A DNA stretch of 64,000 bases from Phycisphaerae bacterium (GTDB taxonomy: Bacteria; Planctomycetota; Phycisphaerae; SM23-33). The stretch lies in assembly GCA_016782885.1 (NCBI GenBank), contig JADHXQ010000003.1:18316-82315 (forward strand), read 5' to 3'. A program made the translations under genes and the position numbers. Below are positions 10,852 to 33,650 of this stretch, piece after piece. Below the pieces are notes generated by a model that saw only the letters and a list, made by a program, of their open reading frames with translations, made no database searches and was not told the origin of the DNA. How positions within the stretch are numbered: position 1 is the first letter of the stretch; each line of letters begins with the position of its first letter.

Positions 10852-12214
10852 CCAGACAGACACAAAGAAAAGCTGGACCGCCGCCATCCCCGGCGGGTCG
10901 CGCGATCTGCAGGTCATCGATGGCAATAAGGTCCTCGTCAGCCACGGTAACGGCGCGGGCGAATACGATCTGGCTACGGGCAAGAAGCTATGGGCGATCG
11001 ATTCGTTTACAGGCATCAACTCCGCCCGTCGCCTGGACGACGGAAACACGCTGCTCGGCGGGAGCGGGAAGGGTGGAATAACCATCTACACCGCAGACCG
11101 CACGGGCAAGACGCTCGGCGAGTTGGTCCTCAAGGGCCTGCGGGACCTTCGCCTGATGCGGCGCCTGAAGAACGGAAACATCCTGCTGACCGTCGGCGGA
11201 CCCTATCGGGTTATCGAAGTCGACACCAGGGGGAAGATCGTCTGGCAGGCTAAGATTCCGGGCAAGGGATACAAAGCCGTCCGCCTTCCGTGCGGTAATA
11301 CTTTGGTATCGACAGCCAGCGCCGCGGTGATCGTCGAACTCGACGCAGATGGCAAGATCGTATTCTCGGTGGGCGGAAAGAAGGAACATCCGAATATTCT
11401 GCTGGACTGCTTCTCCGGTTTCGACACACTGCCTAACGGTAACGTGGTCGTCGCCAACTGGCTGGGACACGGTAATATGGGCAAGGGCGGCCAGCACCTC
11501 ATCGAGTTCGATCGCAAGAACAAAGTGGTCTGGACATGGGGCGACAACAAGACAGCAAAGGTGCTCACCAACCTGCTGATCGTGGACGATGTGAAGCAAT
11601 CAACACCCGCCGCCGCCACCCCCGCCGTCGCTGGTGAATGGACCGCCCTGTTCGACGGTAAGACGCTCGAGGGCTGGACCAACCCCTACAAGTGGGGCAA
11701 GGCGTCGGTCGTCGACGGAGAAATCCACCTCACGACCACCAGGTCCAAGTTCTTCCTGACCACCGCCAAACAGTACGCCGACTTCATATTCGAAGTTGAA
11801 GTCAAGATGCCCGAAGGCAAGAGCAACTCCGGATTCATGTTCCGCTGCCACCAGCAGCCCAACAAGGTCTTCGGGTACCAGGCCGAGGTCGACCCGTCAG
11901 ACCGCAAGTGGTCCGGCGGCCTGTACGATGAGGGACGGCGCGGATGGCTTTATCCCGACAAGAAGAAGAAAGAAACGATTGGGGCCTTCCGCAAGAACGC
12001 GGGCGACAGCTTCAAACGCGACGACTGGAACAAGTACCGTATCGAATGCGTCGGTGACAGCCTGAAGATATCCGTCAACGGCGTCCAGACAACCGACTTC
12101 AAGGACTCCACCGACGCCCAGGGATATCTCGCCCTGCAGCATCACGGCGAGAGGGGCAAGATTTACCGATTCAGGAACATCCGCGTAAAGGTCCTCAAAG
12201 CCGCCAAGGAGTAG
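10718..12214 (+). CDS. secreted two-domain protein with an N-terminal beta-propeller-like domain and a C-terminal DUF1080 (3-keto-disaccharide hydrolase-like, LamG fold) domain
   Basis: Signal peptide MKSSLVRIIAFLAVTVAFA with a GGGAG ribosome-binding site 8 nt upstream. The C-terminal region (EWTALFDGKTLEGW...NSGFMFR...GYQAEVD...WNKYRIECVGDSLKISVNGVQT...GYLALQHHG...IRFRNIRVK) matches the DUF1080 signature. Confidence 0.75.
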   Translation: MKSSLVRIIAFLAVTVAFASTARTADVAHKFLGVDNKANNLIYVDQTDTKKSWTAAIPGGSRDLQVIDGNKVLVSHGNGAGEYDLATGKKLWAIDSFTGINSARRLDDGNTLLGGSGKGGITIYTADRTGKTLGELVLKGLRDLRLMRRLKNGNILLTVGGPYRVIEVDTRGKIVWQAKIPGKGYKAVRLPCGNTLVSTASAAVIVELDADGKIVFSVGGKKEHPNILLDCFSGFDTLPNGNVVVANWLGHGNMGKGGQHLIEFDRKNKVVWTWGDNKTAKVLTNLLIVDDVKQSTPAAATPAVAGEWTALFDGKTLEGWTNPYKWGKASVVDGEIHLTTTRSKFFLTTAKQYADFIFEVEVKMPEGKSNSGFMFRCHQQPNKVFGYQAEVDPSDRKWSGGLYDEGRRGWLYPDKKKKETIGAFRKNAGDSFKRDDWNKYRIECVGDSLKISVNGVQTTDFKDSTDAQGYLALQHHGERGKIYRFRNIRVKVLKAAKE

Positions 12215-12217
12215 AAA

Positions 12218-13246
12218 ATGATGAATATTCGCAAGATAGCGATCCCGTGCGTACTCGTAACGTTCGTTTGCCTGTGCGCAGGCCTCGCCGAAGACACCAC
12301 CAAGAACCCGATAGCCATCCGCGCACACAACGTAGTCGTACCGCCGGCGACCGGTCCGGTCAGCGGATTTACCGTCAAGAACCTCCTGGACGCCCCGTAC
12401 ACGGGCAAGGTCACGGTGAAACTCCCCGACGGATGGAAAGCCGACAAGACCCGGTTCGATGTCTCGCTCAAAGCGCGTGAAACGAAACACATCGCATTCG
12501 CGATCGAGAAAGCAGTAGACAGCAAGGTCAATGCGTACCCGTACAAGATCACAGCCGTCGGCAGCGGCAAGACCGTCACGGTCGACCAGAAGGTGATCTG
12601 CGCTACCACGCCATACGTCAAACCGAAGATCGACGGCGATATCTCCGAGTGGTTAAACGATGCAGTCCCCGTAACGTTCATTTGCAAGGACAAGAAGACC
12701 GTTGTCCGGACGTTTTGGAACAAGCGAAACTTCTGCCTCTGCGTCGAAGTGCAGGAGGACAAGTTCATCGCGGACGCAGACGCGATCCAGTTCGCCCTGG
12801 CCTCGGGCAAGGCGTCGACGGGCGATTCCCCAGACGACAAGACCGCCCGGTACGAATTTCTGATCGTCGGCGGGAGGTGCTACCAGTTAGTCAAGCCGGG
12901 AACCCCGCTGGGCGACACCCAAAAAGCTAATCCCCTGCCCGCGGAGACCGTCGCAAAATCCGTGGTGGCCGTCAAGCGGGAAAAAGACATCACGCGATAT
13001 GAAATATCCGTACCGATGCGCCCCATGCAGGAACTCCGGGCCACTACCGGACGCGAGTACCGCTTCTCCGTGCTGGTCCACGACCCCGACTCTACGGGTA
13101 TTCGGGATCTCGCCGAAGCGGCCAGCCCGCTGCCCGGAAGCCGCAACAAGTATGCCTGGTGCAAATGGCCCGGCGCAAAGTGGCCCAGTGAAAAGCCCCT
13201 GCTCGACAGCAAAGTCGAATGGGGCTTCTGTACATCGATACACTGA
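12218..13246 (+). CDS. secreted hypothetical protein, possibly with a CBM9/DOMON-like carbohydrate-binding domain
   Basis: Signal peptide. The KPKIDGDISEWLNDAVPVTF segment resembles the start of CBM9-like domains. It begins 3 nt after the stop of the upstream gene. Confidence 0.5.
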   Translation: MMNIRKIAIPCVLVTFVCLCAGLAEDTTKNPIAIRAHNVVVPPATGPVSGFTVKNLLDAPYTGKVTVKLPDGWKADKTRFDVSLKARETKHIAFAIEKAVDSKVNAYPYKITAVGSGKTVTVDQKVICATTPYVKPKIDGDISEWLNDAVPVTFICKDKKTVVRTFWNKRNFCLCVEVQEDKFIADADAIQFALASGKASTGDSPDDKTARYEFLIVGGRCYQLVKPGTPLGDTQKANPLPAETVAKSVVAVKREKDITRYEISVPMRPMQELRATTGREYRFSVLVHDPDSTGIRDLAEAASPLPGSRNKYAWCKWPGAKWPSEKPLLDSKVEWGFCTSIH

Positions 13247-13324
13247 TCGACTACAGTACTTTTTACAGGCGTTGTTTAGATCGTCCCCCCAGGGCACGTT
13301 AACTTTTTCAGACAGGAGAATGCA

Positions 13325-14374
13325 ATGAATCGTGAAATGAAAGTTCCAGCCAGGTTGGTTTTCGCATTGGTGTTCGCAGCCGTTCTTGTCTCGGGCTGCG
13401 CCGAGCCCTTGAAGTCAGGTCGCGCGGCGAAAAAAGGCGCCATCGTGATTCAGTCGGCGTTGGCGGAGAATGAAGACGCCCTGAAGGCGGGCAAGATCGC
13501 GGCAGAATCGCTCAAGAAGGCCTTGGGCAGCACCGCTCCCAAGGTCGTCCTCGTCACCGACTGTTTCGATGACAAAGCCCTCAAGACCAGCGCCCTCAAG
13601 GGTGTGACCTCCGTATTCTCCAAGGACATTGTCGTGGGTTTCGCCGGGTATGGTTCGTTTACCCAGGGCGGGGCACAGGACACCGATACGGTCGGCGTGC
13701 TGGGAATCGGCGGCGACGGGATCGACGTCCAGATAGCGTTCCAGAAGAACATGGGCGCCAAGGGCCTGTCGTTCGATACCGACAAGGCCAAACTCACCAA
13801 GGTACTGGGAGATGCCGGGCGGACCCTGGCGAAGAAACTGACCCAAAAGGCCGATTCACGCCTGCTGATCGCCATTCCCGACGCCCACTCGCCCAAGAAC
13901 CAGTTGTTCATGGACGGGCTGCAGGAAGTGGTCGGCAAGGACTTCCCGATAACCGGCGGTTCGATCTCCAAGAACGACGGCGAAACGTTCCTCTCCTACC
14001 AGGGCCAGCTCCACAGTGACAGCGCTATCGCGATAATGCTCTCGGGCGATTTCAAGGTCGCGATGGCGGGCAGGCAGGCGAAAACCAACGACGCCGTAAT
14101 CGCCACAGCCAAGGATGGAGCGGCAGAGGCCCTCAAGAACCTCGGCGCCAAGCCGATCGCCATGATCGCCTTCGACTGCGCAGGACGAAAGGGCAAGCTC
14201 GACAACCTCGGAGACGAACTCAAAGCGTTCCAGGGAGTCACGGGCAAGGATATCACGGTGTTCGGAGCCTACTGCGCCGGCGAGTTCGGACCGGCCGATG
14301 TTAAAGAGAAGAAACCCGGCGTCGTATCCAGCGGGATGGGCTGGCACGCCATGATCACGTTCATCGGGCGCTGA
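13325..14374 (+). CDS. lipoprotein, possibly with FIST-like N and C sensory domains
   Basis: Signal peptide ending in the lipobox L-V-S-G-C. Internal segments (VVLVTDCFDD..., GAYCAGEFGP) loosely resemble FIST_N/FIST_C. Confidence 0.45.
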   Translation: MNREMKVPARLVFALVFAAVLVSGCAEPLKSGRAAKKGAIVIQSALAENEDALKAGKIAAESLKKALGSTAPKVVLVTDCFDDKALKTSALKGVTSVFSKDIVVGFAGYGSFTQGGAQDTDTVGVLGIGGDGIDVQIAFQKNMGAKGLSFDTDKAKLTKVLGDAGRTLAKKLTQKADSRLLIAIPDAHSPKNQLFMDGLQEVVGKDFPITGGSISKNDGETFLSYQGQLHSDSAIAIMLSGDFKVAMAGRQAKTNDAVIATAKDGAAEALKNLGAKPIAMIAFDCAGRKGKLDNLGDELKAFQGVTGKDITVFGAYCAGEFGPADVKEKKPGVVSSGMGWHAMITFIGR

Positions 14375-14376
14375 GG

Positions 14377-15387
14377 ATGAACCTGCAATCGCGACGTGAT
14401 TTTCTCAGGACCGTCTCGCTGGCGGGCGCAGTTGTCCTGACCGATTCGGCTTCGGTCAAGGCGGCGCCCCCCGCCGGCGAAACGGTTCGTGCAATCCGCT
14501 ATCGCAGCGCCGCCGATTCGACGGAGCAGGCGGCGATATTCTACGCGCCGGAATCAAAATCCAAAACGCCTGTCCCACTGCTGGTCGGTCTGCACACATG
14601 GAGCGCTAACTACAGGCAGGTCGGCGGGCGATGCCCGTATGGACCATGGTGCATCAAGAACAAGTGGGCGTTTATCGGACCGGACTTCCGCGGATCGAAC
14701 AAGCGCCCGCAGGCCTGCGGGTCGCAACTGGCGGTAGACGACATAATCAGCGCGGTAAAGTACGCCCAAAAAGTCGCCAACATCGATGCTAATCGCATCT
14801 ATCTCATCGGCGCTTCGGGCGGAGGGCATATGGCGATGCTGATGGCCGGGCGGGCTCCGGAAATATGGGCCGGCGTCTCGGCGTGGGCGGGAATATCGGA
14901 CCTCAAGGCATGGCACGCCGAGTGCAAAAAGTCCAAACGCAGATACGCCGGGGAAATCGAGAAATCCTGCGGCGGACCGCCCGGGAAGAGCGACGCGGTG
15001 GACCTCGAATACAAAAACCGCTCACCGCTCACCTGGCTGCATCGGGCAAGAAAGACGGGCGTCCGCCTGGACATCAACGCGGGAATAAACGACGGGCACA
15101 GCGGCTCGGTGCCGATCAGCCATTCCCTGCGAGCGTTCAACGCGGTGGCCGATCCCGCCGACCGCATCTCCGACGCCGATATCGTCCACATGGTCGAAAA
15201 GGCCGAAGTCCCCACGCATCTGCGGAAGAAACTTTCCGATCGAACCTACGGGCCAAAGATACCATTGCTGCGAAAGATATCCGGCCCGGCGCGCATTACG
15301 ATATTCCAGGGCGGACACGAGATCGTACCGACCGCCGCACTGACCTGGTTGTCCCTGCAGAAAAAGTCTGCCCCGAAGCCGAAGTAG
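14377..15387 (+). CDS. Tat-secreted alpha/beta-hydrolase (esterase/peptidase S9-like)
   Basis: Twin-arginine motif SRRDFLR. GxSxG nucleophile elbow LIGASGGGH. It starts 2 nt after the stop of the upstream gene. Confidence 0.65.
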   Translation: MNLQSRRDFLRTVSLAGAVVLTDSASVKAAPPAGETVRAIRYRSAADSTEQAAIFYAPESKSKTPVPLLVGLHTWSANYRQVGGRCPYGPWCIKNKWAFIGPDFRGSNKRPQACGSQLAVDDIISAVKYAQKVANIDANRIYLIGASGGGHMAMLMAGRAPEIWAGVSAWAGISDLKAWHAECKKSKRRYAGEIEKSCGGPPGKSDAVDLEYKNRSPLTWLHRARKTGVRLDINAGINDGHSGSVPISHSLRAFNAVADPADRISDADIVHMVEKAEVPTHLRKKLSDRTYGPKIPLLRKISGPARITIFQGGHEIVPTAALTWLSLQKKSAPKPK

Positions 15388-15393
15388 CTACTG

Positions 15394-17286
15394 TCATTTC
15401 TTTACGGGCGTGATCTTCAGCGTGACCGTCGCTTCGGTCACTGGGGCTTTTAGTGCAATGCCTATTCGCGTCGGGAGCGTCTTGGTCCTGACGTCTTCCT
15501 TGATTTGTTCGGACTTAATATCAAACGCGACGCCGCCGGTGTCGATCTCGACGCGGAGGCTCTGCCCGCCATCGCTGACGATTATCGCGTTACGACCGCT
15601 GCGTTCCCACTTGCCCAGCGTAATCATGGCCGTTTCGAAGGACGTTGGCTTGCTGAAGGCGGCATCATCGCGAACCGTCAGCGACCCCGCGGCCGCACGG
15701 GAATAGACAAACGTCCTGTTTAGTTTGGTTAGCTGCGGTACTCTCTTGGCGTATGCCGAACGGATGTCCAGAACCAGCGTGTCGGCGTCGTCGGTGAATT
15801 TCGTTTTGACGACAACTCCTTTGGCGCCCGACCCGCTCTGCTGGAGCTTACCGGCGATGCGGGGCACGGGATGGCCCAGCGAATTCAGCACGCCGCTGAC
15901 ATAGCGTTTGGAACTGAACGTCCGCGCGGTATACACCTCGGCACCGGGGTCGACGAGTACCGGCGTCTTGCCGGCGACTACCACGTACGATCCGACATCG
16001 TTGTGATTGTGATGCTCGCCATTGTGCCCGCCCTTGAGCGCGACGCCTACGACGCATTTCGACTTGGGCGTCGGGCGACAGATGAGCACGCCGGCCTTGT
16101 CGAACCACGTTCGCACGCCCGGACCGGCGGCGGCATGGCCTCTATGGATGGCGCTGATCGAACTGGGGAATGAGAATATCATCGATATGGGCAATCGCCC
16201 TTTGAAGCTTATCAGCATCTTATCGCCGTCCGGGTCAGCGCCGAGCGAGTATCGGCGCGACAGAAAATGCACCATATCCAACGACGCCCGGGCGCTAACC
16301 GAGCAGTCGGCAAACGCGGGCGACACGCCGTTGATGATTTCGATACGCCGGGGGAACATCGCCGGGGTCCGGACGTTCTGTGCCTCCATCATGTCTATCC
16401 GCCCGCCGGTGGCCTGCCAGATCGTTTCAGCCAACTGCACGTAATTCCCAAACCCGTACGACCAGTAGCCCAGCCCCTCGCTGCAGTATCCGTCGGACGT
16501 GAAACCGGCCAGGAAGCTCTTGGAGTATTTCATCGCCGCCGCCACGTATTTTGCCCGCTCCGCCCGCGATTCGATCGTCGCCAGGGCGGCGCCGGTGACG
16601 CCGGCGAGGCACACCGCGTTCCAGTTGTTCGTGGTCGACATCCACCAGTTCGCCCGCCGTTTACCGCTGACCATCCCCATGTACGGATCGAATATCCGCT
16701 TGCGGAGGTTCTCGTCGATCAGTTTCCGCGTCCTGGCGTCGAGTTTGTCGCCTAGCAGATACCTCGCCGTCGCCAGTTCCCAACCCACATACGAAGACGC
16801 CAGGTCGATGTCGACGGTGCGTCCCTTGAAGTTCGCCAGCGACCTGTCGTGAGCGGGATAAACCCACGTCGGCTCGCTACAGATCGCGGCGATGACCTTC
16901 TGGAGATCGGTGATGAATCGCCCGTGGTTTTCGAGGCACTCAGCCACGGTCAGCAGGCCTATCCGCCCTCGCCGCCGCCCCGCTACCCTCTGCCATCTGT
17001 TCCGATTGCCCGTTCGCGAGAAGTCCAGGTACAGGTCGTCGCTCTGATCCGGCAGAGGCGCGCCGATCAGCTTGGCGGCTGTATCGACGATATCGCGATA
17101 TCCCTCGGTTTTCGCCAGAGCCTTCCAGGCCGTCCGATCGGCGGCCGGTCGCCCGAGACCGGCAGGCTTTGCCGGAAGGAACTCGGCGATGTTGGGCGCC
17201 TCAGCCGCCAACACACCAGCAGACGTAACCGCCAACACCGCCGCCATAATGCCTGTTATCCGTAAGATACGCTTGATCTTCCGCAT
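15394..17286 (-). CDS. heparinase II/III-like polysaccharide lyase family protein, secreted
   Basis: The C-terminal GGHNGEHHNHNDVGSYVV motif is typical of heparinase II/III-like domains. The start is placed at the internal ATG (17286) that precedes the signal peptide MRKIKRILRITGIMAAVLAVTSAGVLA. The ORF track extends it to 17388. Confidence 0.6.
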   Translation of the reverse strand: MRKIKRILRITGIMAAVLAVTSAGVLAAEAPNIAEFLPAKPAGLGRPAADRTAWKALAKTEGYRDIVDTAAKLIGAPLPDQSDDLYLDFSRTGNRNRWQRVAGRRRGRIGLLTVAECLENHGRFITDLQKVIAAICSEPTWVYPAHDRSLANFKGRTVDIDLASSYVGWELATARYLLGDKLDARTRKLIDENLRKRIFDPYMGMVSGKRRANWWMSTTNNWNAVCLAGVTGAALATIESRAERAKYVAAAMKYSKSFLAGFTSDGYCSEGLGYWSYGFGNYVQLAETIWQATGGRIDMMEAQNVRTPAMFPRRIEIINGVSPAFADCSVSARASLDMVHFLSRRYSLGADPDGDKMLISFKGRLPISMIFSFPSSISAIHRGHAAAGPGVRTWFDKAGVLICRPTPKSKCVVGVALKGGHNGEHHNHNDVGSYVVVAGKTPVLVDPGAEVYTARTFSSKRYVSGVLNSLGHPVPRIAGKLQQSGSGAKGVVVKTKFTDDADTLVLDIRSAYAKRVPQLTKLNRTFVYSRAAAGSLTVRDDAAFSKPTSFETAMITLGKWERSGRNAIIVSDGGQSLRVEIDTGGVAFDIKSEQIKEDVRTKTLPTRIGIALKAPVTEATVTLKITPVKK

Positions 17287-17361
17287 TTCTGTGTCTCCCG
17301 GTAAGCCCGCAGCGGACCTCTGAGATGATAATAGCCATTTTCCCCGCAGGAGCAAGACTAC

Positions 17362-17410
17362 CATTGCCAATGCGTTATCTGTTATCATAGGTACATTGCA
17401 ATTGCAATAG
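17362..17410. promoter_or_regulatory. ATTGC(N)AAT palindromic motifs in a divergent promoter region
   Basis: cattgccaatg at 17362..17372 and cattgcaattgcaat at 17394..17408, where ATTGCAAT is a perfect palindrome. They lie in the 144-bp AT-richer gap between divergently transcribed genes with starts at 17286 and 17431. Confidence 0.25.
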
Positions 17411-17430: not shown

Positions 17431-20229
17431 ATGATTGCTTGTAGGTTTATGCTGCTGTCATTGGCGACGTTGGTCATGCTGGTCTCGACCGGGAAGGCAG
17501 CCCCTGTTGCTTCGAATACCGCGACGGTGTCGATCTCGGCGCGAGGACCGCTGGCCGCGGGCGCCCTGGGCGAAAACGCCGCAATACACACCAACCGAAC
17601 CTACACGTTCACCAAAGTGCCCAAATTCCTGCAAGGGCTGAAGTTCACCTCGCATCAGCATAATGCCCCTGCGCGTTATACATGCAGCATTAAAACGGCC
17701 GGACGCCTGTATCTCTGCCTGCAGAAACCGTTGACACCCAAGGCGGTCAAACTCACCGGCGACTGGAAGCAGTGCGGAAAGATGGACACCGTTATCAACG
17801 GGAAGAACTATCCGTGGACGGTCTTCAGCATCGACGCCGGGACCGGCCAGACGCTGGCCCTCCCGGCGTCCGACAGGTGGGGCGCCGTTATCGCCGTCGG
17901 AAAGATCGACAACCTCAAAACCGCACCCGCCCGGACCCGCCGTCCCGCGGCCAGAAAATCGGCGCCCGCAAACGACGAATACGGATACCTGCAAAACGAT
18001 ATCAGCAACCGAAAATGGTTCGACCGCATCGCCGATCAGGCCCTTGCCAAAGAAGCATTGATACTGGAATCAGACCGCACTCCGCTCGACGTAGTGCTGC
18101 GGCGAACAGAGGCGCTTGCGACGCGAATCTCCTCGATGGACGGTGCCCCGGATATCACCAGACTCGTCACCGAACTCAAGAGCCTGCGGTCCGAAGCCCC
18201 CGGTCGCGAACTGTTCGACAAGGTCTGCAAACTCCGCCGCAAAATCGCGTTTTCCAACCCGCTGCTGAATTTCGACAAGCTGCTGTTCATCACGCGCCGA
18301 GACCCGGGCGGACCGTTCCACATGTGCGACCAGTTCTACGGCTGCAACGCCAAACCCGGCGGCGGACTGTACGTCCTTTCCGACCCGTTTGGCGCCGAAC
18401 CGAAAGTAACGAACCTGCTGGAAAACTCCGTGGTCCAATCAGGCCGCCTGAAAGGCCAAAAGCTAACCGGCGGTTCGTTCCTCTCGCCCGAACTCTCTTA
18501 CGACGGTAAGACGATCATGTTCGCCTGGACGCAGGCCAAAGCAAAGAAGACCTACACCTGGGGACCCGAGATCAGCTATCATATTTTCAAGTGCAACGCC
18601 GACGGAAGCGGTCTGGTGCAGATCACCGACGGCGACGCCGACGACTTCGACCCGTGCTTCCTGCCCGGCGGGCGGATCGCTTTCATCTCGCTGCGCCGAG
18701 GCGGATACCTTCGTTGCGGACGCCACTGCCCCGTTTACACGATGTTCTCGATGAAGCCCGACGGCTCGGACATCGCCCCGCTGAGCCACCACGAAACGCA
18801 CGAATGGCACCCAAGCGTCGACAACGACGGAATGATCGTCTACACGCGATGGGACTACATCGACCGCGACACCAACGTCGCGCACCATATATGGATATCG
18901 TATCCCGACGGGCGCGACCCGCGGAGCATGCACGGCAACTATCCCATAGACCGCAAGAAACGCCCGTGGATGGAAATGGAAATCCGGGCGATTCCCGGCT
19001 CGCACAGATACGTCGCCGTCACCGGAGCGCATCACGGTAACGCGATCGGCTCGCTTGTGCTGATCGATCAGCGCATCGAAGACGACAACGCCATGAGCCA
19101 GGTCAAACGCCTCACGCCCGAGGCGCCCTTCCCCGAATCGGAAACCAACACCAAAACAGGCATGCGATACGGTACGCCCTGGCCCCTCAACAAAGATTTT
19201 TATCTCTGCGTCCACGATCCGGCCGCCAGGAACCGCGGAATCCACCTGATCGACCGATTCGGTAACCGCGAGTTGATCTACCGAGACCCGTCGATACCGT
19301 GCCTGAGCCCCATCCCGCTGAGGGCGCGACCAAAACCGCCGGTCATCCCCGACCAGACGCAAGATTCCCGCCCGGCCACCGTGGCGGTTATGAACGTATA
19401 CGATGCAGACTTCGAGTGGCCTAAGGATACGAAGATCAAGTCGCTGCGAATCATACAACTGCTTCCGAAATCCACCGCCCCGCCGAACAAGCCTCGAATC
19501 GGGGTAGCCGCCCAAACCAACGCGCGCGCGGTGCTCGGCGACGTACCGGTAGAAGCTGACGGTAGCTGCTACTTCGAGGCCCCGGTCGGAATCCCCATCT
19601 ACTTCCAGGCCCTCGACGCCCGCGGTCTGGCGGTCCAGTCGATGCGGTCATTGACTTACGTTCATCCCGGCGAGCGTCTGACCTGCCTGGGATGCCACGA
19701 ACGCAAGCTCGCCACCCCCAAGGCCAACAAAGCCCCGAGAATGCCGCTGGCGATGAAACGTACGCCATCGAAGATACGCCCTGAAGTCGACGGAGCCAAC
19801 CCGTTCAACTATCCGCGACTCGTCCAACCGGTGCTCGATAAGCATTGCGTAAAATGTCACACCGAGAATAACGCCAAGAAGGACAAGAAGAAAACCGCCC
19901 CCGACCTTCGTAATACCATCACGCGAAACAACGGGTGGACCCAATCGTATGTCTCGCTGGCGAGCAAGTACGGATTCTACTTCCACGTCACCAACGGTTC
20001 GATCAAGAGCGGCGTACACGGCGGGAGCAGATCCATCCCCGGTAAGTTCGGAGCAAAGGCCTCGAAACTCTTCGAGATGCTCGAAAAGGGGCACCACAAG
20101 CTCAAGCTGCCGCCCAAAGACCTCTACCGCCTGACGCTCTGGATCGACTGCAACTCGGAGTTCTACGGCGCCTACTACGACACGCAAAAACAAGCAGCCG
20201 GTGAAATAGTACTCCCCGACCTCCAATAG
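17431..20229 (+). CDS. family member 1: secreted beta-propeller protein with two CxxCH motifs (putative c-type heme) and an N-terminal beta-sandwich module of unknown type
   Basis: Signal peptide. Conserved core blocks include DPCFLPGGRIAFIS, HETHEWHPSVDNDGMIVYTRWDYIDRD and two CxxCH motifs (CLGCHERK; HCVKCHTENNAKKDKK). The N-terminal ~170 aa are homologous to the N-terminus of member 4. Confidence 0.7.
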   Translation: MIACRFMLLSLATLVMLVSTGKAAPVASNTATVSISARGPLAAGALGENAAIHTNRTYTFTKVPKFLQGLKFTSHQHNAPARYTCSIKTAGRLYLCLQKPLTPKAVKLTGDWKQCGKMDTVINGKNYPWTVFSIDAGTGQTLALPASDRWGAVIAVGKIDNLKTAPARTRRPAARKSAPANDEYGYLQNDISNRKWFDRIADQALAKEALILESDRTPLDVVLRRTEALATRISSMDGAPDITRLVTELKSLRSEAPGRELFDKVCKLRRKIAFSNPLLNFDKLLFITRRDPGGPFHMCDQFYGCNAKPGGGLYVLSDPFGAEPKVTNLLENSVVQSGRLKGQKLTGGSFLSPELSYDGKTIMFAWTQAKAKKTYTWGPEISYHIFKCNADGSGLVQITDGDADDFDPCFLPGGRIAFISLRRGGYLRCGRHCPVYTMFSMKPDGSDIAPLSHHETHEWHPSVDNDGMIVYTRWDYIDRDTNVAHHIWISYPDGRDPRSMHGNYPIDRKKRPWMEMEIRAIPGSHRYVAVTGAHHGNAIGSLVLIDQRIEDDNAMSQVKRLTPEAPFPESETNTKTGMRYGTPWPLNKDFYLCVHDPAARNRGIHLIDRFGNRELIYRDPSIPCLSPIPLRARPKPPVIPDQTQDSRPATVAVMNVYDADFEWPKDTKIKSLRIIQLLPKSTAPPNKPRIGVAAQTNARAVLGDVPVEADGSCYFEAPVGIPIYFQALDARGLAVQSMRSLTYVHPGERLTCLGCHERKLATPKANKAPRMPLAMKRTPSKIRPEVDGANPFNYPRLVQPVLDKHCVKCHTENNAKKDKKKTAPDLRNTITRNNGWTQSYVSLASKYGFYFHVTNGSIKSGVHGGSRSIPGKFGAKASKLFEMLEKGHHKLKLPPKDLYRLTLWIDCNSEFYGAYYDTQKQAAGEIVLPDLQ

Positions 20230-20279
20230 CCACCACAAACCAAAACCCACAGCTACCTCATTCGAAAGCAAGAGAATAT

Positions 20280-22607
20280 ATGTACACGGTCCCTGTCATG
20301 CATCACAGAGAGGCTATCGCCCTGGCTTTACTTGCAGCCGCCGTAATGCTGCTCCAGCCCGCCCGGGTCGCCGACGCAAAACGGCCGAAAGCCGGGAAGA
20401 GCGTTCCGCAAGCGCGACACAACGCGGCGATCAAAGACAATCCGCTGATGAACTTCAAGAAGCTCCTGTTCGTCAAGCGGTTCAAGTTCCAGTCGAACCA
20501 CTACTACACCGACTACATCAACGGGTGCAGGAAATTCGGGGGCAACCTGTGCGTCCTGGACATGAAAAGCGGAGATGTAATCGACCTCTGCCCTGAAATG
20601 AAGGAAGGCATCTTCGGACGATTCGACCTGCACTTCGACGCCAGGAAGATAGTGTTCGCCTGGAAGAAACAGCTCGGAGAAGGCTTCCGCCTGTACGAGA
20701 TCGGCATCGACCCCGCGACAGGCAAACGATCCGGAAAAATCCGCCAGGTCACCTTCCCCGCCGACAATGAAGAACAACTGCACAAACTCTACAAGCTCGG
20801 TTACCACCACGGCACCGACGACATGGACCCGTGTTATCTGCCCGACGGCGGCGTGCTCTTCATCTCGACGCGATGCCAATACGGGATCCTCTGTAATGGC
20901 GCAGACGTTCTGACCACCACGCTGCTTTACCGCGTCGACGCCGACGGTAAGAACATGCAGAAGCTCACCAACTCAGCGGTCAGCGAAGCCACGCCGTCGA
21001 TCCTCAACGACGGGCGAATCATGTACACGCGTTGGGAATACGTCGACAAGGGCGCGGTGGCCAACAAGTGCTTGTGGGCGGTCCGACCCGACGGGACCGG
21101 GCAGGTCGAAATCTACGGAAACGCCATCACACTGCCCCCTACGTTCCACCAGGGAAGAGCGATACCCGGTACAAACACCAAGTTCGTTTTCCTGGGCGTA
21201 CCGCACTACCCGCAAAACGGCGTGGGTACGGTTATCCGCATCGACATGACCAAGAACATCCGCACCCGCGAACCGATGACATACATCACCCCCGACGTCG
21301 ACATCCGAGGCGAGGGCGGGTTCTGGCACGATCGCAACTCCAAGTGGGGCGCAAGACGCCTGTTCAAGGAACCGTTCCCGCTGAGCGAAAACCTCTTCCT
21401 GGTCTCCATGAACGTCGACAAGAACTGGAAGCACCCCACCGCCTGGGATATCTGCCTGCTCGACGAATCCGGAGACACCGCGCTGATCCACTCAGATCCG
21501 GATATCGGCCTGTTCCAGCCCATCCCGCTCCGTCCTCGAAAAACACCGCCCATCCTGAAAGGATCTCTCGATCCGAAGCTGGCCAGGCAGAATCTCGCAC
21601 GCTGTGTAGTGACCGACATATACCACGGCATGGAAAATACCCCGCGAGGTTCAATAAAGTACATCCGCATTAACGAACAGGTTCCGCGCCCTTGGGCCGC
21701 ACGACGCAGATGGGGCGGGGACTGCTACGACCAGCAGCACGCCGTTATCAGCAAAGACACCAACCTCGCACTGCGCGTCCAGGTCGGGGTGGTCCCGGTA
21801 GAAAAAGACGGTTCGGCTCACTTCACAGTACCGGCAGACCGGAACATCTTCTTCCAGGCGCTCGATGAAAACTACATGGAAGTGCAACGCGAACGAACGT
21901 GCGTTAACTATCGCCCGGGCGAGTCGCGATCGTGTATCGGATGCCACGAAACGCCAAACGACATCGTCGCGGCGAAAACCAGCGTTGTGATCGCCCTGAA
22001 ACGCCCGCCCTCCAAGCCCGGTCCGCAACCGGGCGAAAAGTCCGGGGCGCGACCCATTGACTACGCCGTAGACGTCCAGCCGGTGCTCGACAAGCACTGC
22101 ATCAAGTGTCACGGCCCCAAGGACGGCAAGAAACCCAAGGGCGGCCTGGACCTGTCGGGAACGCTGACGAGCCTGTTCAGCATCTCGTATGAAAACCTTC
22201 TCCGCGAGCGACGAAGGGGCAAGGGTCGCAGGCGATTCGACCTGTTCCCCACGATCGGCGAGAACCATCCAAAGGCCGGGAACATTAAATACCTGCCCGC
22301 GAGATCGCTCGGTTCACACGCAAGCATCCTGATCGCCATGCACTCGAGGGGAAAGGTCAAACTCAAGGACCCCAAAGCCGCCGAGATCGCCGCCAAACTC
22401 GCCAAGGTACACGAGAAAGGGAAAGTCAACCTGCCGCTCGAAGACATGATCCGCCTGACGACATGGGTGGATGCCAACGGGCAATACTACGGAACCTACT
22501 ACGGGCGAAAGAACCTGAAGTACAAGGACCATCCGAATTTCCGCCCGGTCCCAACGTTCGAAAACGCAAGATCAACCACCGCCCCACTACCCGAAGACAA
22601 GAGATAA
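20280..22607 (+). CDS. family member 2: core-only beta-propeller/di-CxxCH protein with no N-terminal lectin module
   Basis: The signal peptide leads directly into the core (NPLMNFKKLLFVKRFKFQSNHYYTD...). CIGCHETP and HCIKCHGPKDGKKPKGGLDLSG are present. Its core is about 80% identical to member 3. Confidence 0.75.
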   Translation: MYTVPVMHHREAIALALLAAAVMLLQPARVADAKRPKAGKSVPQARHNAAIKDNPLMNFKKLLFVKRFKFQSNHYYTDYINGCRKFGGNLCVLDMKSGDVIDLCPEMKEGIFGRFDLHFDARKIVFAWKKQLGEGFRLYEIGIDPATGKRSGKIRQVTFPADNEEQLHKLYKLGYHHGTDDMDPCYLPDGGVLFISTRCQYGILCNGADVLTTTLLYRVDADGKNMQKLTNSAVSEATPSILNDGRIMYTRWEYVDKGAVANKCLWAVRPDGTGQVEIYGNAITLPPTFHQGRAIPGTNTKFVFLGVPHYPQNGVGTVIRIDMTKNIRTREPMTYITPDVDIRGEGGFWHDRNSKWGARRLFKEPFPLSENLFLVSMNVDKNWKHPTAWDICLLDESGDTALIHSDPDIGLFQPIPLRPRKTPPILKGSLDPKLARQNLARCVVTDIYHGMENTPRGSIKYIRINEQVPRPWAARRRWGGDCYDQQHAVISKDTNLALRVQVGVVPVEKDGSAHFTVPADRNIFFQALDENYMEVQRERTCVNYRPGESRSCIGCHETPNDIVAAKTSVVIALKRPPSKPGPQPGEKSGARPIDYAVDVQPVLDKHCIKCHGPKDGKKPKGGLDLSGTLTSLFSISYENLLRERRRGKGRRRFDLFPTIGENHPKAGNIKYLPARSLGSHASILIAMHSRGKVKLKDPKAAEIAAKLAKVHEKGKVNLPLEDMIRLTTWVDANGQYYGTYYGRKNLKYKDHPNFRPVPTFENARSTTAPLPEDKR

Positions 22608-22642
22608 ACCACGCCAGAAAAGCCCCACAGGAGCAACAACCG

Positions 22643-25600
22643 ATGTCCAAGACAACGATCAGACATATTACCCCACTCGTATTCGTGGTCGTCATTGGCG
22701 CCATGTTCACCGGCGCTGTGGGCGCCGACTACGTCAAAAAGGCCACCTGGGTCGAGTCCATGATCGCCACGCGCGAGGCGATGGTCGGAAAACGCCCCCC
22801 TTCCAAGGCTCCGACCGGCCTGCCGAATCTGGCGAAAGACTCATACACTATCGCCGCGTGGATTTGCACCAAAAGCGGCGGGACGATCTTCGCCAAATGC
22901 CAGCCGAACAGGGGCTGGCAGCGCTTCGGTAAGACCCTTTTCGTCGCCGGCGGGCGAGTCAACATGGATGTACACTCGGCTGGCGTATTCCGAGGAACTT
23001 CAAATGTAGCCGACGGAAAATGGCATCACGTGGCGGTGGCCGGAACGAAAAAGGGACAGACAATCTACGTCGACGGAAAAGCCGAAGCCAAAGGCAATCT
23101 CCGCGGCGATTACGATCCCAAGGGCGCCGTGGGAAAGATCGGGTATACCTCGCCGAACTTCCCGGGGCGAAACTCGTACTTCACCGGCCTGATCGACGAT
23201 ATGCGAATATACAACCGGGCGCTGGGCGAAAAGGAACTCAAGGGCGTCATGACCAAACCCCACTCGCTCGGAGCCAACGGCCTGGCGGGACACTGGCCTT
23301 TCGACTCAGGCGTCCTGGATGCATCGGGCAACAACAACCACGCAACGAGCATGAAAGGCGCCAAGCTCTCTAACGGAAAGATCGGCAGGGCGTTGGACCT
23401 CAACGGGCAGGTTAAGATCCTCCTGGCCGCTCCCGGGCAGAAGCAGAACCCCAACATCCCAATCTGGTCGTTTCTGAGAAAAGCATTCACCGACGACGCG
23501 GCTCGCAATGAAATGACCTGGGAAATCCAGGACGGTATCTGGCGGAACGATTGGAAACCAGGCGATTACGCCGCACTGGCCAAACGCTATGCGACGGCTT
23601 CTCACCGCTCACCGAAACACGCCGAACAGGCCGCAAAACTCGCCAAGGGCGTAGAAGACGCCTCCGCCTTGGCGAAAGTCCGCCAGGCGTACCTGCGATC
23701 GCGAGCCTACGAAAGCGTTATGGAGAAACTCAAGGAACTCGATATCGTCGGCCTGCGGAGAATGCTGGCCAATCTGGCCAAAACGGGCGCAAAGATCGAC
23801 AAGAATCTCGCCCGACTCGATGCGATCGAAACCAGGGCGGTCAAGATGGCCGACACCGAGATCACTCCCGAAGCGATGATCGCGTTCAAAAGGGAAGTTC
23901 AGCAGATCCGCTACGACGCGCTGATAAAGGGCAACCCGCTGATGGATTTCGAGAAGCTCCTGTTCGTCAAGCGATTCAAGTACCAGTCGAACCACTACTA
24001 CACCGACTTCATCAACGGTTGCAGCAAGTTCGGCGGGAATCTGTGCGTCCTGGACCTCAAGAGCGGCGACGTTATCGACCTCATCCCGGAAATGAAGGAA
24101 GGCATCTTCGGACGATTCGACCTGCACTTCAACGCCGACAGAATCGTCTTCGCCTGGAAGGCCGAACGCGAAGAGGGCTTCCGCATCTACGAGGTCCCCA
24201 TCGATCCGAAGACGGGCAAGCGAACCGGCAATGTACGCCAGGTCCTCGCTGCACCGCACAACGAGAAGGATATTCAGAAGAAATACCGAGTCGGTTATCA
24301 CCACGGCACCGACGACATGAACCCGGTCTACCTGCCCGACGGAGGAATAGTGTTCATCTCGTCGCGATGCCAGTACGGCATCCTCTGCGACGGGCCCGAC
24401 ATCTTCTGCACCACGCTGCTTTACCGAATCGACGCCGACGGTAATAACCTGCAGAAGCTCACAAACTCCGCAGTCAGCGAAGCCACTCCCACCATCCTCA
24501 ACGACGGGCGGATCATGTACACCCGCTGGGAGTACCTCGACAAGGGCTCGGTCACCAACAAGTGCCTCTGGGCGGTCCGACCCGACGGTACCGGGCAGGC
24601 CGAAATCTACGGAAGCGACATCGCATACCCCGCATCGTTCCACCAGGGACGGGCGATTCCCGGAACGAACACCAAGTTCGTGTTCCTGGGCGTACCGCAC
24701 TATCCGCAGAACGGCGTGGGCACGGTTATCCGCATCGACATGACCAAGAACATCCGCACCCGCGAGCCGATGACCTACATCACCCCCGACGTAGACGTAC
24801 GCGGACAGGGCGGGTTCTGGCACGATCGTGAAGGCAAGTGGGGCCCCCACCGCCTGTTCAAAGAGCCCTTCCCGCTGAGCGAAGAGTTCTTCCTGGTCTC
24901 GATGAACGTCGAAAAGAACTGGAAGCACCCCACCGCCTGGGACATCTGCCTGCTCAGCGAATCGGGCGACACCGCCGTGATCCACTCGGACCCGGAGATC
25001 GGCGTGTTCCAGCCCATCCCGCTGAAGAAACGCAAAATGCCCGCCATCCTCAAAGGCGCCCTCAACCCCGAGTTGGCGAAAAAGGGCCTGGCGGTCTGCG
25101 TCGTAACCGACATCTACCACGGAATGGAAGACACACCCCGCGGATCGATCAAGTACATCCGCATCAACGAGCAGGTCCCGCGTCCCTGGGCGTCACGCAG
25201 GCGTTGGGGCGGCGACACCTCCGACCAGCAGCACGTGACGATCACGGGCGCAACCCACCTGGGGCTCAAGATCCAGGTCGGCGTGGTCCCGGTCGAGAAA
25301 GACGGATCGGCCCACTTCTACGTGCCGGCCGACAAAAACGTCTTCTTCCAGGCGCTGGATGAAAACTACATGGAAGTGCAGCGTGAACGGACGTGCGTGA
25401 ACTATCGTCCCGGCGAGTCGCGGTCGTGCATGGGCTGCCACGAAACGCCCAACGAGATCGTATCGGCCAGGCAGAAGGTCGTAACCGCCCTGAAGCGCAA
25501 GCCCTCATCGCCCGGACCGCAGCCGGGTGAGAAGTCAGGTTCAAAGCCGCTGTACTATCCCATCGACGTCCAGCCGGTGCTCGACAAGCACTGCATCAAG

Positions 25601-26074
25601 TGCCACAGCCCAAAGGACGGCAAGAAGCCCAAAGCCGATCTGGACCTGTCGGGCACGATGACAACGCTCTTCAGCGTATCCTACGAAAACCTCCTGAAGC
25701 GAAGGAGATACGGTCTGTTCCCAATGATCCGCGAGAACCATCCCAAAGCCGGCAATACGCATTATCTACCGGCAAGATCGCTCGGTTCGCACGCGAGCCT
25801 GCTGATCGCCATGCACTCCAAGGGCAAGGTCAAACTCAAGGACCCCAAACTGGCCGAAGATGCGAAAAAACTCGCAAAGGTGCATGAGAAGGTGAACCTC
25901 CCGCCGGAGGACATGGTCCGCCTGTCGACCTGGGTCGACTCCAACGGACAATACTACGGCAGCTACTACGGACGGCGGAACCTGAAGTACAAGGACCATC
26001 CGAACTTCCGCCCGATCCCGACATTCGAGAGCGCAAGATCGACCACCGCCCCCCTGCCCGAAGACCAGAGATAG
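22643..26074 (+). CDS. family member 3: LamG/concanavalin-like N-terminal domain plus the beta-propeller/di-CxxCH core
   Basis: The start is placed at the ATG at 22643, which has an AGGAG ribosome-binding site and a signal peptide MSKTTIRHITPLVFVVVIGAMFTGAVGA. The N-terminus has LamG-like features (DGKWHHVAV...TIYVDGK...IDDMRIYNRAL). CMGCHETP and HCIKCHSPKDGKKPKADLDLSG are present. Confidence 0.75.
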   Translation: MSKTTIRHITPLVFVVVIGAMFTGAVGADYVKKATWVESMIATREAMVGKRPPSKAPTGLPNLAKDSYTIAAWICTKSGGTIFAKCQPNRGWQRFGKTLFVAGGRVNMDVHSAGVFRGTSNVADGKWHHVAVAGTKKGQTIYVDGKAEAKGNLRGDYDPKGAVGKIGYTSPNFPGRNSYFTGLIDDMRIYNRALGEKELKGVMTKPHSLGANGLAGHWPFDSGVLDASGNNNHATSMKGAKLSNGKIGRALDLNGQVKILLAAPGQKQNPNIPIWSFLRKAFTDDAARNEMTWEIQDGIWRNDWKPGDYAALAKRYATASHRSPKHAEQAAKLAKGVEDASALAKVRQAYLRSRAYESVMEKLKELDIVGLRRMLANLAKTGAKIDKNLARLDAIETRAVKMADTEITPEAMIAFKREVQQIRYDALIKGNPLMDFEKLLFVKRFKYQSNHYYTDFINGCSKFGGNLCVLDLKSGDVIDLIPEMKEGIFGRFDLHFNADRIVFAWKAEREEGFRIYEVPIDPKTGKRTGNVRQVLAAPHNEKDIQKKYRVGYHHGTDDMNPVYLPDGGIVFISSRCQYGILCDGPDIFCTTLLYRIDADGNNLQKLTNSAVSEATPTILNDGRIMYTRWEYLDKGSVTNKCLWAVRPDGTGQAEIYGSDIAYPASFHQGRAIPGTNTKFVFLGVPHYPQNGVGTVIRIDMTKNIRTREPMTYITPDVDVRGQGGFWHDREGKWGPHRLFKEPFPLSEEFFLVSMNVEKNWKHPTAWDICLLSESGDTAVIHSDPEIGVFQPIPLKKRKMPAILKGALNPELAKKGLAVCVVTDIYHGMEDTPRGSIKYIRINEQVPRPWASRRRWGGDTSDQQHVTITGATHLGLKIQVGVVPVEKDGSAHFYVPADKNVFFQALDENYMEVQRERTCVNYRPGESRSCMGCHETPNEIVSARQKVVTALKRKPSSPGPQPGEKSGSKPLYYPIDVQPVLDKHCIKCHSPKDGKKPKADLDLSGTMTTLFSVSYENLLKRRRYGLFPMIRENHPKAGNTHYLPARSLGSHASLLIAMHSKGKVKLKDPKLAEDAKKLAKVHEKVNLPPEDMVRLSTWVDSNGQYYGSYYGRRNLKYKDHPNFRPIPTFESARSTTAPLPEDQR

Positions 26075-31051: not shown

Positions 31052-31071
31052 AGTGGTTGCACCTGTCTCCC

Positions 31072-33642: not shown

Positions 33643-33650
33643 AGCGTCAA

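Follow-up and report, generated by a model that had tools for sequence, protein, structure and literature searches.

The question raised by this Phycisphaerae DNA, a stretch of 64,000 nucleotides (the window), is what six long, related genes lying among glycosidase- and sulfatase-like genes might do. All six open reading frames (ORFs) named in a preliminary description, which took them for secreted proteins with a beta-propeller and two c-type heme motifs, were present and paralogous, as follows.

Paralog A, 17431..20229, + strand: 932 aa; signal peptide, A/D-type beta-sandwich module at aa 24-164 (nt 17500-17922), helical linker, HzsA-like core at aa 264-932; HZS_alpha 75.4 bits; CLGCH at aa 752 (nt 19684-19698), CVKCH at aa 806 (nt 19846-19860).
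Paralog B, 20280..22607, + strand: 775 aa; signal peptide followed by HzsA-like core; HZS_alpha 80.3 bits; CIGCH at aa 552 (nt 21933-21947), CIKCH at aa 607 (nt 22098-22112); conserved residues R198, C205, R251-W252-x-Y254, W266, H309, R463 and H711.
Paralog C, 22643..26074, + strand: 1143 aa; signal peptide, Laminin_G_3 at aa 61-199 (nt 22823-23239; E 4.7e-20), long helical linker, core; HZS_alpha 77.6 bits; CMGCH at aa 929 (nt 25427-25441), CIKCH at aa 984 (nt 25592-25606).
Paralog D, 33651..36572, - strand: 973 aa; signal peptide, A/D-type beta-sandwich at aa 29-169, linker, core; HZS_alpha 66.8 bits; CQGCH at aa 799, CLPCH at aa 853.
Paralog E, 44892..48029, - strand: 1045 aa; signal peptide, NPCBM at aa 33-158 (nt 47556-47933; E 4.4e-29), linker, core, C-terminal tail of ~110 aa; HZS_alpha 73.5 bits; CVGCH at aa 780, CGKCH at aa 831.
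Paralog F, 55748..59053, + strand: 1101 aa; signal peptide, NPCBM (best stretch aa 123-210, nt 56114-56377; E 1.4e-25), linker, core, C-terminal tail of ~120 aa; HZS_alpha 76.9 bits; CVGCH at aa 810, CIKCH at aa 863.

Paralogs A, B and C run in the same direction with intergenic gaps of 50 and 35 nt. The starts originally chosen for C (22643) and D (36572) give signal-peptide-like N-termini, and the alternative C start at 22463, the beginning of the ORF, would produce a 145-nt overlap with B. A signal-peptide-like N-terminus was found in all six proteins, in agreement with the proposed export, and a scan of the six for hydrophobic segments revealed none besides it. The common core, put at ~650 aa before, was found to comprise about 680 aa in each ORF (669-790 aa from an NPL-x-(N/D)F motif to the stop; 678 HMM positions), and its pairwise identity was 79% for B and C, 53% for A and D, and 31-37% for the remaining pairs. 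Paralog C is 99.9% identical to P0010.

A resemblance to the general architecture of the hydrazine synthase alpha subunit (HzsA) had been pointed out, and profile and structure matches revealed that it goes beyond a common layout to full-length homology. Pfam HZS_alpha matched all six proteins at 67-80 bits (cutoff 26.6), each match ending at the first CxxCH, while family profiles matched Kuenenia stuttgartiensis HzsA (PDB 5C2V chain A, 5c2v_A) with an E value of 3.4e-28, or 5e-42 for a diverse family profile, in alignments spanning the propeller, middle and C-terminal domains. The AF2 model of B (pLDDT 84) was matched by Foldseek to 5c2v_A over its full length (E 3.4e-30, TM 0.60), and the expected beta-propeller is a six-bladed TolB/PD40-type fold; paralog E also matches Pfam PD40 at 24.3 bits, above the cutoff. 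Like HzsA, the six proteins combine a six-bladed propeller, an HZS_alpha middle domain with the heme I CxxCH and a C-terminal cytochrome c domain with the heme II site, and both the QxLD(D/E) motif and the position of the distal His772 can be aligned, at about 17% identity overall. No characterised enzyme besides HzsA was found to match the core. The best propeller match was TolB, with no enzyme ahead of it; however, TolB lacks heme domains, the six score 18-22 bits against TIGR02800 (cutoff 343), and a Tol-Pal context is absent around them.

The C-terminal domain had been likened to PSCyt1 (PF07635), an assignment that fails the Pfam threshold, the sole match being B with 17.2 bits (cutoff 22) over 17 of 59 profile positions. 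This domain aligns instead with the HzsA heme alphaII domain; its likeness to PSCyt1 lies in a short heme-binding helix motif, ...QP(V/I)LDxxCxxCH, followed by basic residues, and the PSCyt2 and PSD1 domains of PSCyt1-PSCyt2-PSD1 proteins are absent from the six paralogs.

Identity as hydrazine synthase was rejected, since the six reach 36-63 bits against the NCBIfam equivalog (cutoff 800), none has a Tyr at the HzsA Tyr591 position (His+4; 0/6), and no HzsBC-like gene occurs within the 64 kb. As no Tyr591-type ligand is present, heme I would be expected to keep normal His ligation. The paralogs further differ from HzsA in the shorter linker that leads from the heme I motif to the C-terminal domain (~32 versus ~80 aa), in their added signal-proximal lectin-type modules and helical linkers, in the lack of a nearby HzsB/HzsC partner gene, and in their glycan-degrading rather than anammox gene context.

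Exactly two CxxCH motifs occur in each of the six proteins, as claimed before. The first reads C-x-G-C-H-E throughout, although the preceding R.C of the preliminary description was seen in just 4/6; the second reads D(K/R)xCxKCH in five, while D has CLPCH, and the Lys-rich stretch that follows is present. The blocks HHGTDDM(D/N)P(C/V)YLPDGG and NDGRI(M/V)YTRWEY, presented as common to the core, occur verbatim in B and C but not in A, D, E and F, which carry diverged PD40-type versions such as ADDFDPCFLPGGR and NDGMIVYTRWDY. Conservation was evaluated in 150 family representatives with pairwise identity of no more than 50%, and this revealed CxGCH in 100% and the second CxxCH in 99%; thus, sharing of these motifs by the six paralogs is not a matter of chance. 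A His invariant in the six aligns with His772, the distal heme alphaII ligand of HzsA, and was found in 146 of the 150. In the propeller and core (B numbering), C205 and H309 were 99% conserved, and R251, Y254, W266 and R463 were 100% conserved.

Pfam bore out the N-terminal modules described earlier: NPCBM in E and F, Laminin_G_3 in C and none in B. The beta-sandwich common to A and D had no Pfam match, was modelled by AF2 as a 10-strand all-beta domain (pLDDT 88.7), and also occurs in GH2/GH138 enzymes. These modules proved swappable, with different ones on cores 61-86% identical and swaps inside core subfamilies: the F core is 86.5% identical to that of P0122, yet P0122 bears F5/8 type C in place of NPCBM, and LamG is present in C and absent from B at 79% core identity. 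Among 46 diverse members, LamG was found in 9, F5/8 type C in 5, NPCBM in 3 and CBM_AftD in 1.

The neighbouring genes considered were the following.

10718-12214, +: Mala_s_1/ASST-like propeller with DUF1080
12218-13246, +: unknown gene
13325-14374, +: FIST protein
14377-15387, +: S9/BD-FAE-type esterase
15394-17388, -: heparinase II/III-like protein
26083-27165, -: GH5, between C and D (as are the next five)
27186-29051, -: RecQ
29223-30416, +: BNR_2 sialidase-like
30422-31051, -: HEAT repeat
31072-32145, -: DUF1559/N-methyl pseudopilin-like
32185-33741, -: sulfatase
36809..37840, +: DUF1080 (3keto-disac_hyd; E 9.6e-29), divergent from and adjoining D

The GH5, sulfatase and sialidase-like neighbours reported before are thus all in place, while the heparinase-like lyase is a weak heparinase II/III-like match (22.5 bits, cutoff 24). 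The block 10718..17388 upstream of A-B-C is syntenic, in the same order, in four related MAGs (L001-L004). Neither a second diheme gene nor nitrogen-cycle genes were found in the 64-kb window.

We regard it as the best explanation, with a probability of roughly 55%, that the six are Sec-exported two-heme HzsA homologs serving as glycan-tethered accessory redox proteins of PVC polysaccharide-degradation loci, and not hydrazine synthases. All the evidence fits the earlier idea of secreted, glycan-targeted heme redox proteins, whose heme binding, redox activity and glycan binding are predictions. The middle HZS_alpha domain, with its C-x-G-C-H motif, would carry heme I, and a bis-His heme II would sit in the class-I-like cytochrome c domain, bound by its CxxCH and conserved distal His. 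Since near-invariant residues occupy equivalent loop positions of successive blades, they should share one propeller face and, as deduced from strand and loop positions only, should cluster beside heme I; R198, C205, R251-W252-x-Y254, W266 and H309 (B numbering) together with heme I would form the most likely reactive pocket. Heme II would relay electrons to or from an external partner, a role that might not hold. The helical linker of five paralogs joins the core to an interchangeable module (NPCBM, LamG or the GH2/GH138-type beta-sandwich), which would tether the protein to polysaccharide at the cell surface or within the periplasm. Many hosts of the family are anaerobes, so O2-dependent chemistries would be limited. 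Gene context speaks for this reading in the window itself and in relatives, several of which lie inside arrays, of co-directional GH127/arabinofuranosidase/GH43/GH106/GH97 genes (L086) or of sulfatase/chondroitinase B-like/esterase genes (L088); sulfatase, GH106, BNR_2 and DUF1080 genes accompany the member at L081, and GH29 and GH2 that at L083. Against it, glycan links are few or absent in two of six Pfam-labelled relative contexts, L087, where one of 17 neighbours is an esterase, and L084, with a single weak beta-helix match. Sulfatases and CAZymes abound in PVC genomes, and across 81 loci sulfatases were not commoner close to a family member (within 2 genes) than further off (6 versus 13 loci).

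The fungal pyranose dehydrogenase CcPDH consists of an AA8 cytochrome, an AA12 six-bladed PQQ propeller and CBM1, and RoxA is a secreted diheme c-type rubber oxygenase with a CCP/MauG fold. By analogy, both follow a similar logic, that of a secreted redox protein uniting a heme domain with a catalytic domain and, in the case of CcPDH, with a carbohydrate-binding module for docking on a polymer. Neither shows a sequence relationship to them: the heme is of type b in AA8 and would be c here, evidence for PQQ is absent in the six, and Pfam detects no CCP/MauG fold in them.

An unlikely alternative is that the proteins themselves lack a catalytic site, being either glycan-tethered periplasmic cytochromes that exchange electrons with redox enzymes of the same loci or alpha-type subunits whose HzsBC-like partner (propeller plus CCP/MauG-like diheme) is encoded elsewhere in the genome. 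Heme II resembles that of a plain bis-His class-I cytochrome, and in P0164 a family core is naturally fused to parts resembling HZS beta (5c2v_B, E 6e-33) and HZS gamma (5c2v_C, E 4e-22), which makes a partner elsewhere in the genome possible. An HzsBC-like gene also lies 3 kb from a family member at L013, and alpha-like and beta-gamma-like genes are co-located in other bacteria (Hagglund et al. 2025, PMC12758564). However, such a fusion was seen in just 1 of 150 representatives and such a neighbour at just 1 of 81 loci, the window has six copies and no beta-gamma-like gene, and the ~12 near-invariant polar or aromatic propeller residues, including the 99% conserved Cys, would be needless for a simple carrier.

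More doubtful is the view that the proteins act, like the HZS relatives, on NO, hydroxylamine, nitrite, peroxide or similar small N/O species, with modules that just fix them to particles or to glycans of the cell's own envelope. In HzsA, the sole homolog that has been characterised, hydroxylamine and ammonia are handled at heme alphaI, and a broad family of hydrazine-synthase-like enzymes with alternative substrates has been proposed (Dalcin Martins et al. 2023, PMC10732223). Some contexts, such as L087, are also devoid of CAZymes. Against this view, HzsA-specific active-site features are missing from the six, the window is devoid of nitrogen-cycle genes, and several relatives lie inside the co-directional glycoside hydrolase or sulfatase arrays named above (L086, L088). 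Several paralogs per genome with differing glycan-binding modules also suit substrate diversity better than anchoring.

That the propeller domain serves to bind or cleave glycans (lyase/hydrolase type), with the hemes as structural or regulatory remnants, is very unlikely: sialidases, oligogalacturonate lyase, arabinanase and arylsulfate sulfotransferases (six-bladed) are among its fold neighbours and the conserved Arg, Tyr and Glu/Asp could bind anionic sugars, but its top match TolB is not an enzyme, Pfam detects no GH or PL family in the six, and retention of both CxxCH motifs and the distal His at 97-100% in very divergent members argues for functional hemes.

Databases already cover the family, through a Pfam domain and under the name 'HzsA-related protein' at NCBI, and our literature search found no paper describing its glycan link. 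Related genes have been reported as non-anammox HzsA-like clades I-IV, chosen because they are co-located with HzsBC-like fusion genes (Hagglund et al. 2025, PMC12758564), and as hzs-like genes of Phycisphaerae UBA1845 (Dalcin Martins et al. 2023, PMC10732223). Like the six, these are distantly related to HzsA, come from anaerobes that include Planctomycetota, and do not conserve the HzsA catalytic residues; unlike them, the six keep both heme sites and the distal His, carry carbohydrate-binding-type modules and have no adjacent HzsBC-like gene, whereas heme II is missing from clades II and III and the His772 equivalent from clade I, and an FG-GAP gene often lies between the HzsA-like and HzsBC-like genes (PMC12758564). 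That study speaks of few alpha homologs, and the preliminary description of a six-member family; our searches place the family across the PVC superphylum, with 2,666 clusters at 50% identity (E<=1e-30).

All six long open reading frames described for this stretch were found, with exactly the coordinates first assigned to them, and G+C in the window is ~59%. They encode paralogs resembling HzsA, the hydrazine synthase alpha subunit:

17431-20229, + strand: A, with a Pfam-less beta-sandwich (A/D module)
20280-22607, + strand: B, without a module
22643-26074, + strand: C, with Laminin_G_3 (Pfam)
33651-36572, - strand: D, with the A/D module
44892-48029, - strand: E, with NPCBM (Pfam)
55748-59053, + strand: F, with NPCBM (Pfam)

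A, B and C lie on one strand, separated by gaps of 50 and 35 nt. The translations revealed two CxxCH motifs in each of the six proteins, as had been claimed, and none elsewhere in them. The earlier starts chosen for C (22643) and D (36572) proved sensible, since both give a signal-type N-terminus, in which one or two basic residues precede a 12-residue hydrophobic stretch; this pattern is common to all six, with no further membrane-like segment. A longer C frame would run 145 nt into B. The common core begins at an NPL-x-(N/D)F motif and extends over the rest of the protein (669-790 aa, 678 HMM positions); its identity is 79% between B and C, 53% between A and D, and 31-37% for every other pair. 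These values indicated that the six paralogs represent four old subfamilies rather than a recent burst. The core motif strings quoted in the preliminary description are literal in B and C, while A, D, E and F carry diverged PD40-type versions of them.

The suspected resemblance to hydrazine synthase alpha turned out to be homology over the whole length, as judged by Pfam, PDB profiles and Foldseek. The Pfam family HZS_alpha (PF18582, hydrazine synthase alpha middle domain) matched all six proteins at 66.8-80.3 bits, against a gathering threshold of 26.6, with the match ending at the first CxxCH in each, and the threshold was also passed by 46 of 46 diverse relatives. In a single-sequence search of the PDB, the sole match was hydrazine synthase alpha (5c2v_A, E 3e-10), and the same chain was recovered at E 3.4e-28 by a profile of the six cores and at E 5e-42 by a profile of the 46 relatives. 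The profile alignment covers residues 85-136, 216-247 and 294-402 of the HzsA chain in the propeller, 449-562 in the middle domain and 640-767 in the C-terminal domain. An AlphaFold2 model of B, built from 58 sequences (pLDDT 84, pTM 0.86), shows ~23 strands, which fits six blades, followed by a middle domain rich in beta structure and a C-terminal domain of helices, and Foldseek matched it to 5c2v_A over its full length (E 3.4e-30, TM 0.60). The six thus share the HzsA domain order of six-bladed propeller, HZS_alpha middle domain with heme I, and cytochrome c domain with heme II, and they are very probably HzsA-like exported diheme proteins. NCBI gives the name 'HzsA-related protein' to one close database homolog.

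A true hydrazine synthase or a hidden anammox organism was rejected on the equivalog score and on the lack of Tyr591 and, in the 64-kb window, of hzsBC. Scores against the HzsA equivalog NF052339 (NCBIfam, cutoff 800 bits) were 42.4 for A, 63.4 for B, 43.7 for C, 44.5 for D, 36.1 for E and 62.2 for F. At heme alphaI of HzsA, the CxxCH histidine is swung away to a zinc and Tyr591, four residues past it, ligates the iron. In contrast, this position is L in A and D, N in B and C, D in E and G in F, and heme I is therefore predicted to keep ordinary His ligation; the six agree in this with the two-residue gap reported for other homologs. Besides the six, no second frame with two CxxCH motifs occurs in the 64-kb window, and phmmer queries resembling HZS beta and gamma found no match there and matched only one of 81 loci. 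The likening of the second motif to PSCyt1 (PF07635) did not hold: among C-terminal fragments scanned at E<=10, B alone gave a match, of 17.2 bits against a threshold of 22 and spanning profile positions 1-17 of 59, and the other four fragments scanned yielded none, nor was PSCyt2 or PSD1 matched. TolB (TIGR02800) was likewise rejected, as only A and E scored (18.1 and 21.8 bits; equivalog cutoff 343) and the likeness of fold is confined to the propeller.

Conservation was assessed over 150 representatives with mutual identity <=50%, using B numbering. Both motifs are kept at 99-100% (CxGCH of heme I 100%, CxxCH of heme II 99%). R251, Y254, W266 and R463 each reach 100%, R198, C205, W252 and H309 each 99%, H74 95%, and the Glu after the first CxxCH 89%. 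HzsA chain His745 (= His772, distal ligand of heme alphaII) aligns with an invariant His of the six, so the distal position of a predicted bis-His heme alphaII is kept as in HzsA, and a His occurs in the equivalent stretch of 146 of the 150 representatives. Covalent attachment of heme to the CxxCH motifs after export is predicted from the motifs themselves, their conservation, the homology to heme sites seen in the crystal structure and the signal peptides.

In the B model, R198 and C205 follow the strand E192-196, R251, W252 and Y254 follow E247-252, and H309 follows E301-307, that is, the same strand position in three consecutive blades, which would place these residues on one propeller face around the axis. 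The zinc site of HzsA is formed by His587 and propeller Cys303, so that its propeller reaches the heme alphaI motif; we therefore infer that the conserved face and heme I together make up a reactive pocket. No profile aligned the stretch of HzsA near chain residue 276, which bears on the zinc-site question; the family has a 99% conserved propeller Cys of its own, C205, a candidate equivalent of Cys303. This near-invariant Cys is the most suggestive residue, with roles as heme ligand, as part of a cross-link or as catalytic thiol all conceivable.

Among the 46 diverse members, the modules counted were LamG (9), F5/8 type C (5), NPCBM (3) and CBM_AftD (1), and others have further propellers, an esterase or a T9SS tail. 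In the family, a module may stand at either end of the protein. Calling them 'swappable' is justified by closely related cores that differ in their modules: F (NPCBM) and the representative P0122 (F5/8 type C) have cores 86.5% identical, E (NPCBM) and the representative P0159 (LamG) are 61% identical, and B and C, without a module and with LamG, are 79% identical. For the A/D module, a word-indexed search gave one match only and a local iterative HMM found it in 6 of 156 sequences.

The six genes are interspersed in the window, as first described, with a heparinase-like protein, a GH5, a BNR sialidase-like protein and a sulfatase, and an esterase and several DUF1080 proteins also lie among them. 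Glycan-related genes surround several relatives:

Neighbours of family members at loci of relatives (Pfam labels)
L086: co-directional array of GH127, arabinofuranosidase, GH43, GH106 and GH97
L088: array of sulfatase, chondroitinase B-like gene, esterase and sulfatase
L081 (Kiritimatiellia MAG): sulfatase, GH106, BNR_2 and DUF1080
L083 (Verrucomicrobia MAG): GH29 and GH2
L084: beta-helix lyase-like gene

At locus L087, the Pfam-labelled neighbourhood had no glycan-gene link. Roughly 17 of 75 neighbour genes at Pfam-labelled loci are glycan-related, a share to be read against host genomes that are themselves very rich in such genes. When the frames of 81 loci were clustered, no cluster was consistently associated with the family; the biggest comprised sulfatases (23 genes), DUF1080 (13) and PQQ_2 (12), and sulfatases within these loci were not nearer family members than expected. 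Given this rich background, the lack of a conserved partner family and the placement of the sulfatases, the module fusions are the stronger argument for a glycan link.

An exhaustive HMM search over 1.84 billion cluster representatives retrieved 2,666 clusters at E<=1e-30 and 6,776 at E<=1e-10; all of the best 150 matched the whole core, and 140 of 148 had exactly two CxxCH motifs. Confirmed loci in the species genomes of GTDB numbered 194, and the 80 of them listed belong nearly all to PVC lineages (Phycisphaerae, Pirellulales, Thermoguttaceae, Kiritimatiellia, Victivallales/Lentisphaerae, Akkermansiaceae and other Verrucomicrobiota), with one Bacteroidota MAG; often a MAG holds more than one copy. 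The nearest relatives (79-86% identity) come from marine Phycisphaerae-type MAGs that keep the order PQQ_2 propeller, propeller + DUF1080, unknown, FIST, esterase, heparinase-like gene and tandem family genes. One of these MAGs has a single LamG-bearing gene in place of B and C; the pair is therefore the product of a recent duplication in which the module was lost or gained. The representative P0121 (1,774 aa) contains two complete HzsA-like cores in tandem in one polypeptide, with two HZS_alpha matches totalling 184 bits.

Taken together, we favour, with a probability of roughly 0.55, the reading that these are exported diheme HzsA-like proteins held by their modules on polysaccharide, with redox chemistry at the propeller face and heme I. 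The proteins would be exported by Sec and receive two c-type hemes, the N-terminal module, on a helical linker, would hold the protein on polysaccharide, the substrate would bind at the conserved face beside heme I, and electrons would be exchanged between heme II and a soluble partner. In HZS, the edges of heme I and heme II are well over 20 A apart, a distance that would speak against a relay between them. Direct action on glycans is possible, though we put it a little short of even odds. Many of the hosts are anaerobes, so an O2-independent redox step would be likelier than oxygenase-type cleavage.

Some members probably work with a beta-gamma-type partner, as two cases indicate. The representative P0164 (2,267 aa, outside the window) joins a family core, three PKD domains and PA14 to a C-terminal part matching HZS beta (5c2v_B, E 6e-33) and HZS gamma (5c2v_C, E 4e-22) and is, by these sequence matches, a natural alpha-beta-gamma fusion; and at locus L013 of a Kiritimatiellae MAG, an HzsBC-like gene (5096-6925, + strand; 609 aa, two CxxCH) lies 3 kb and three genes from a family member, the sole such gene within 10 kb of a member among 81 loci. 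Such links are uncommon, with one case among 150 representatives, one among 81 loci and none in the window. We consider it unlikely that the proteins are pure electron carriers or alpha subunits of a dispersed complex. Chemistry on small N/O species, with the lectin-type modules serving as anchors, appears less probable still, and a propeller with a non-redox function is the least probable of these readings.

Distant HzsA homologs are known in the literature with no function assigned, the focus being on those beside HzsBC-like genes, and the family is already catalogued but functionally uncharacterised. In the library searched, the literature contained nothing on fusions of HzsA-like proteins to lectin-type modules or on their presence in glycan loci, and no account of what HZS_alpha proteins do, how they are expressed or how they are linked to glycans. 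Three aspects appear to be undescribed: that members with both hemes stand alone, that their carbohydrate-binding-type modules are interchangeable, and that they are placed in glycan-degradation loci at this scale. Recalcitrant sulfated algal polysaccharides are degraded to a large extent by PVC bacteria, whose loci abound in unknown genes; a widespread two-heme protein with CBM-type modules in such loci would, if the favoured reading is true, be the first hint of c-type-heme redox in bacterial glycan breakdown. Should the hemes only transfer electrons, or the glycan link be background, the annotation would still be useful in preventing misreading as an anammox marker. Stand-alone genes could pass for hzsA in marker-gene surveys; one, at locus L033 (JADHXT010000191.1), 59% identical to B, lies in a MAG labelled 'Candidatus Brocadiia bacterium'.

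It has been debated whether hydrazine synthase, credited with few alpha-subunit homologs, arose de novo. Six full-length HzsA-like copies lie in one Phycisphaerae-like genome segment, and the thousands of clusters over Planctomycetota, Kiritimatiellia, Lentisphaerota and Verrucomicrobiota offer an abundant candidate ancestral pool with both heme sites intact. A wider proposal, which we hold only tentatively and regard as doubtful, is that the family forms a new PVC class of heme c-dependent accessory enzymes for polysaccharide breakdown, in which an active site of propeller and heme, with the invariant Cys serving as a ligand or in catalysis, would perform O2-independent redox on glycans or their sulfate/acid substituents, interchangeable CBM-type modules would set the target, and the same family would be the ancestral pool for anammox HzsA.

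Other genes and reading frames of the window are as follows.

3221-5746, + strand: FG-GAP repeat protein
5847-7424, 7448-9058 and 9082-10851, + strand: three tandem PQQ_2-type propeller paralogs
37893-39389: fourth PQQ_2-type propeller paralog
10718-12214, + strand: DUF1080 (3keto-disac_hyd) fused to a Mala_s_1/arylsulfotransferase-like propeller
36809-37840, + strand: DUF1080 (3keto-disac_hyd) after ~165 aa without a Pfam match
61868-63193, - strand: DUF1080 (3keto-disac_hyd) fused to a GDSL esterase
30422-32145 and 40403-42156, - strand: two pairs of a HEAT-repeat protein and a DUF1559/N-methyl pseudopilin-like protein
49448-50683 (- strand) and 49615-51102 (+ strand): two long overlapping opposite-strand frames, doubtful as genes, without a Pfam match
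52299-54437, + strand: PD40 + TPR protein with a single CANCH
59229-60242, + strand: IS200-like Y1 transposase domain with a DnaA_C-type helix-turn-helix, directly downstream of F

FG-GAP (CRTAC1-like) genes occur elsewhere between HzsA-like and HzsBC-like genes (Hagglund et al. 2025, PMC12758564), and FG-GAP and PQQ_2 genes lie near the family member at L084. HEAT repeats are fused C-terminal to the HzsA-like core in the representative P0176, and a Mala_s_1-like propeller is fused to it in P0173 and P0205. The PD40 + TPR protein was excluded from the family by HMM; with its listed start at 52026 the frame would overlap the terminal part of NadA, so that the real start probably lies further downstream. 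Frames similar to the transposase gene were observed in two related loci.
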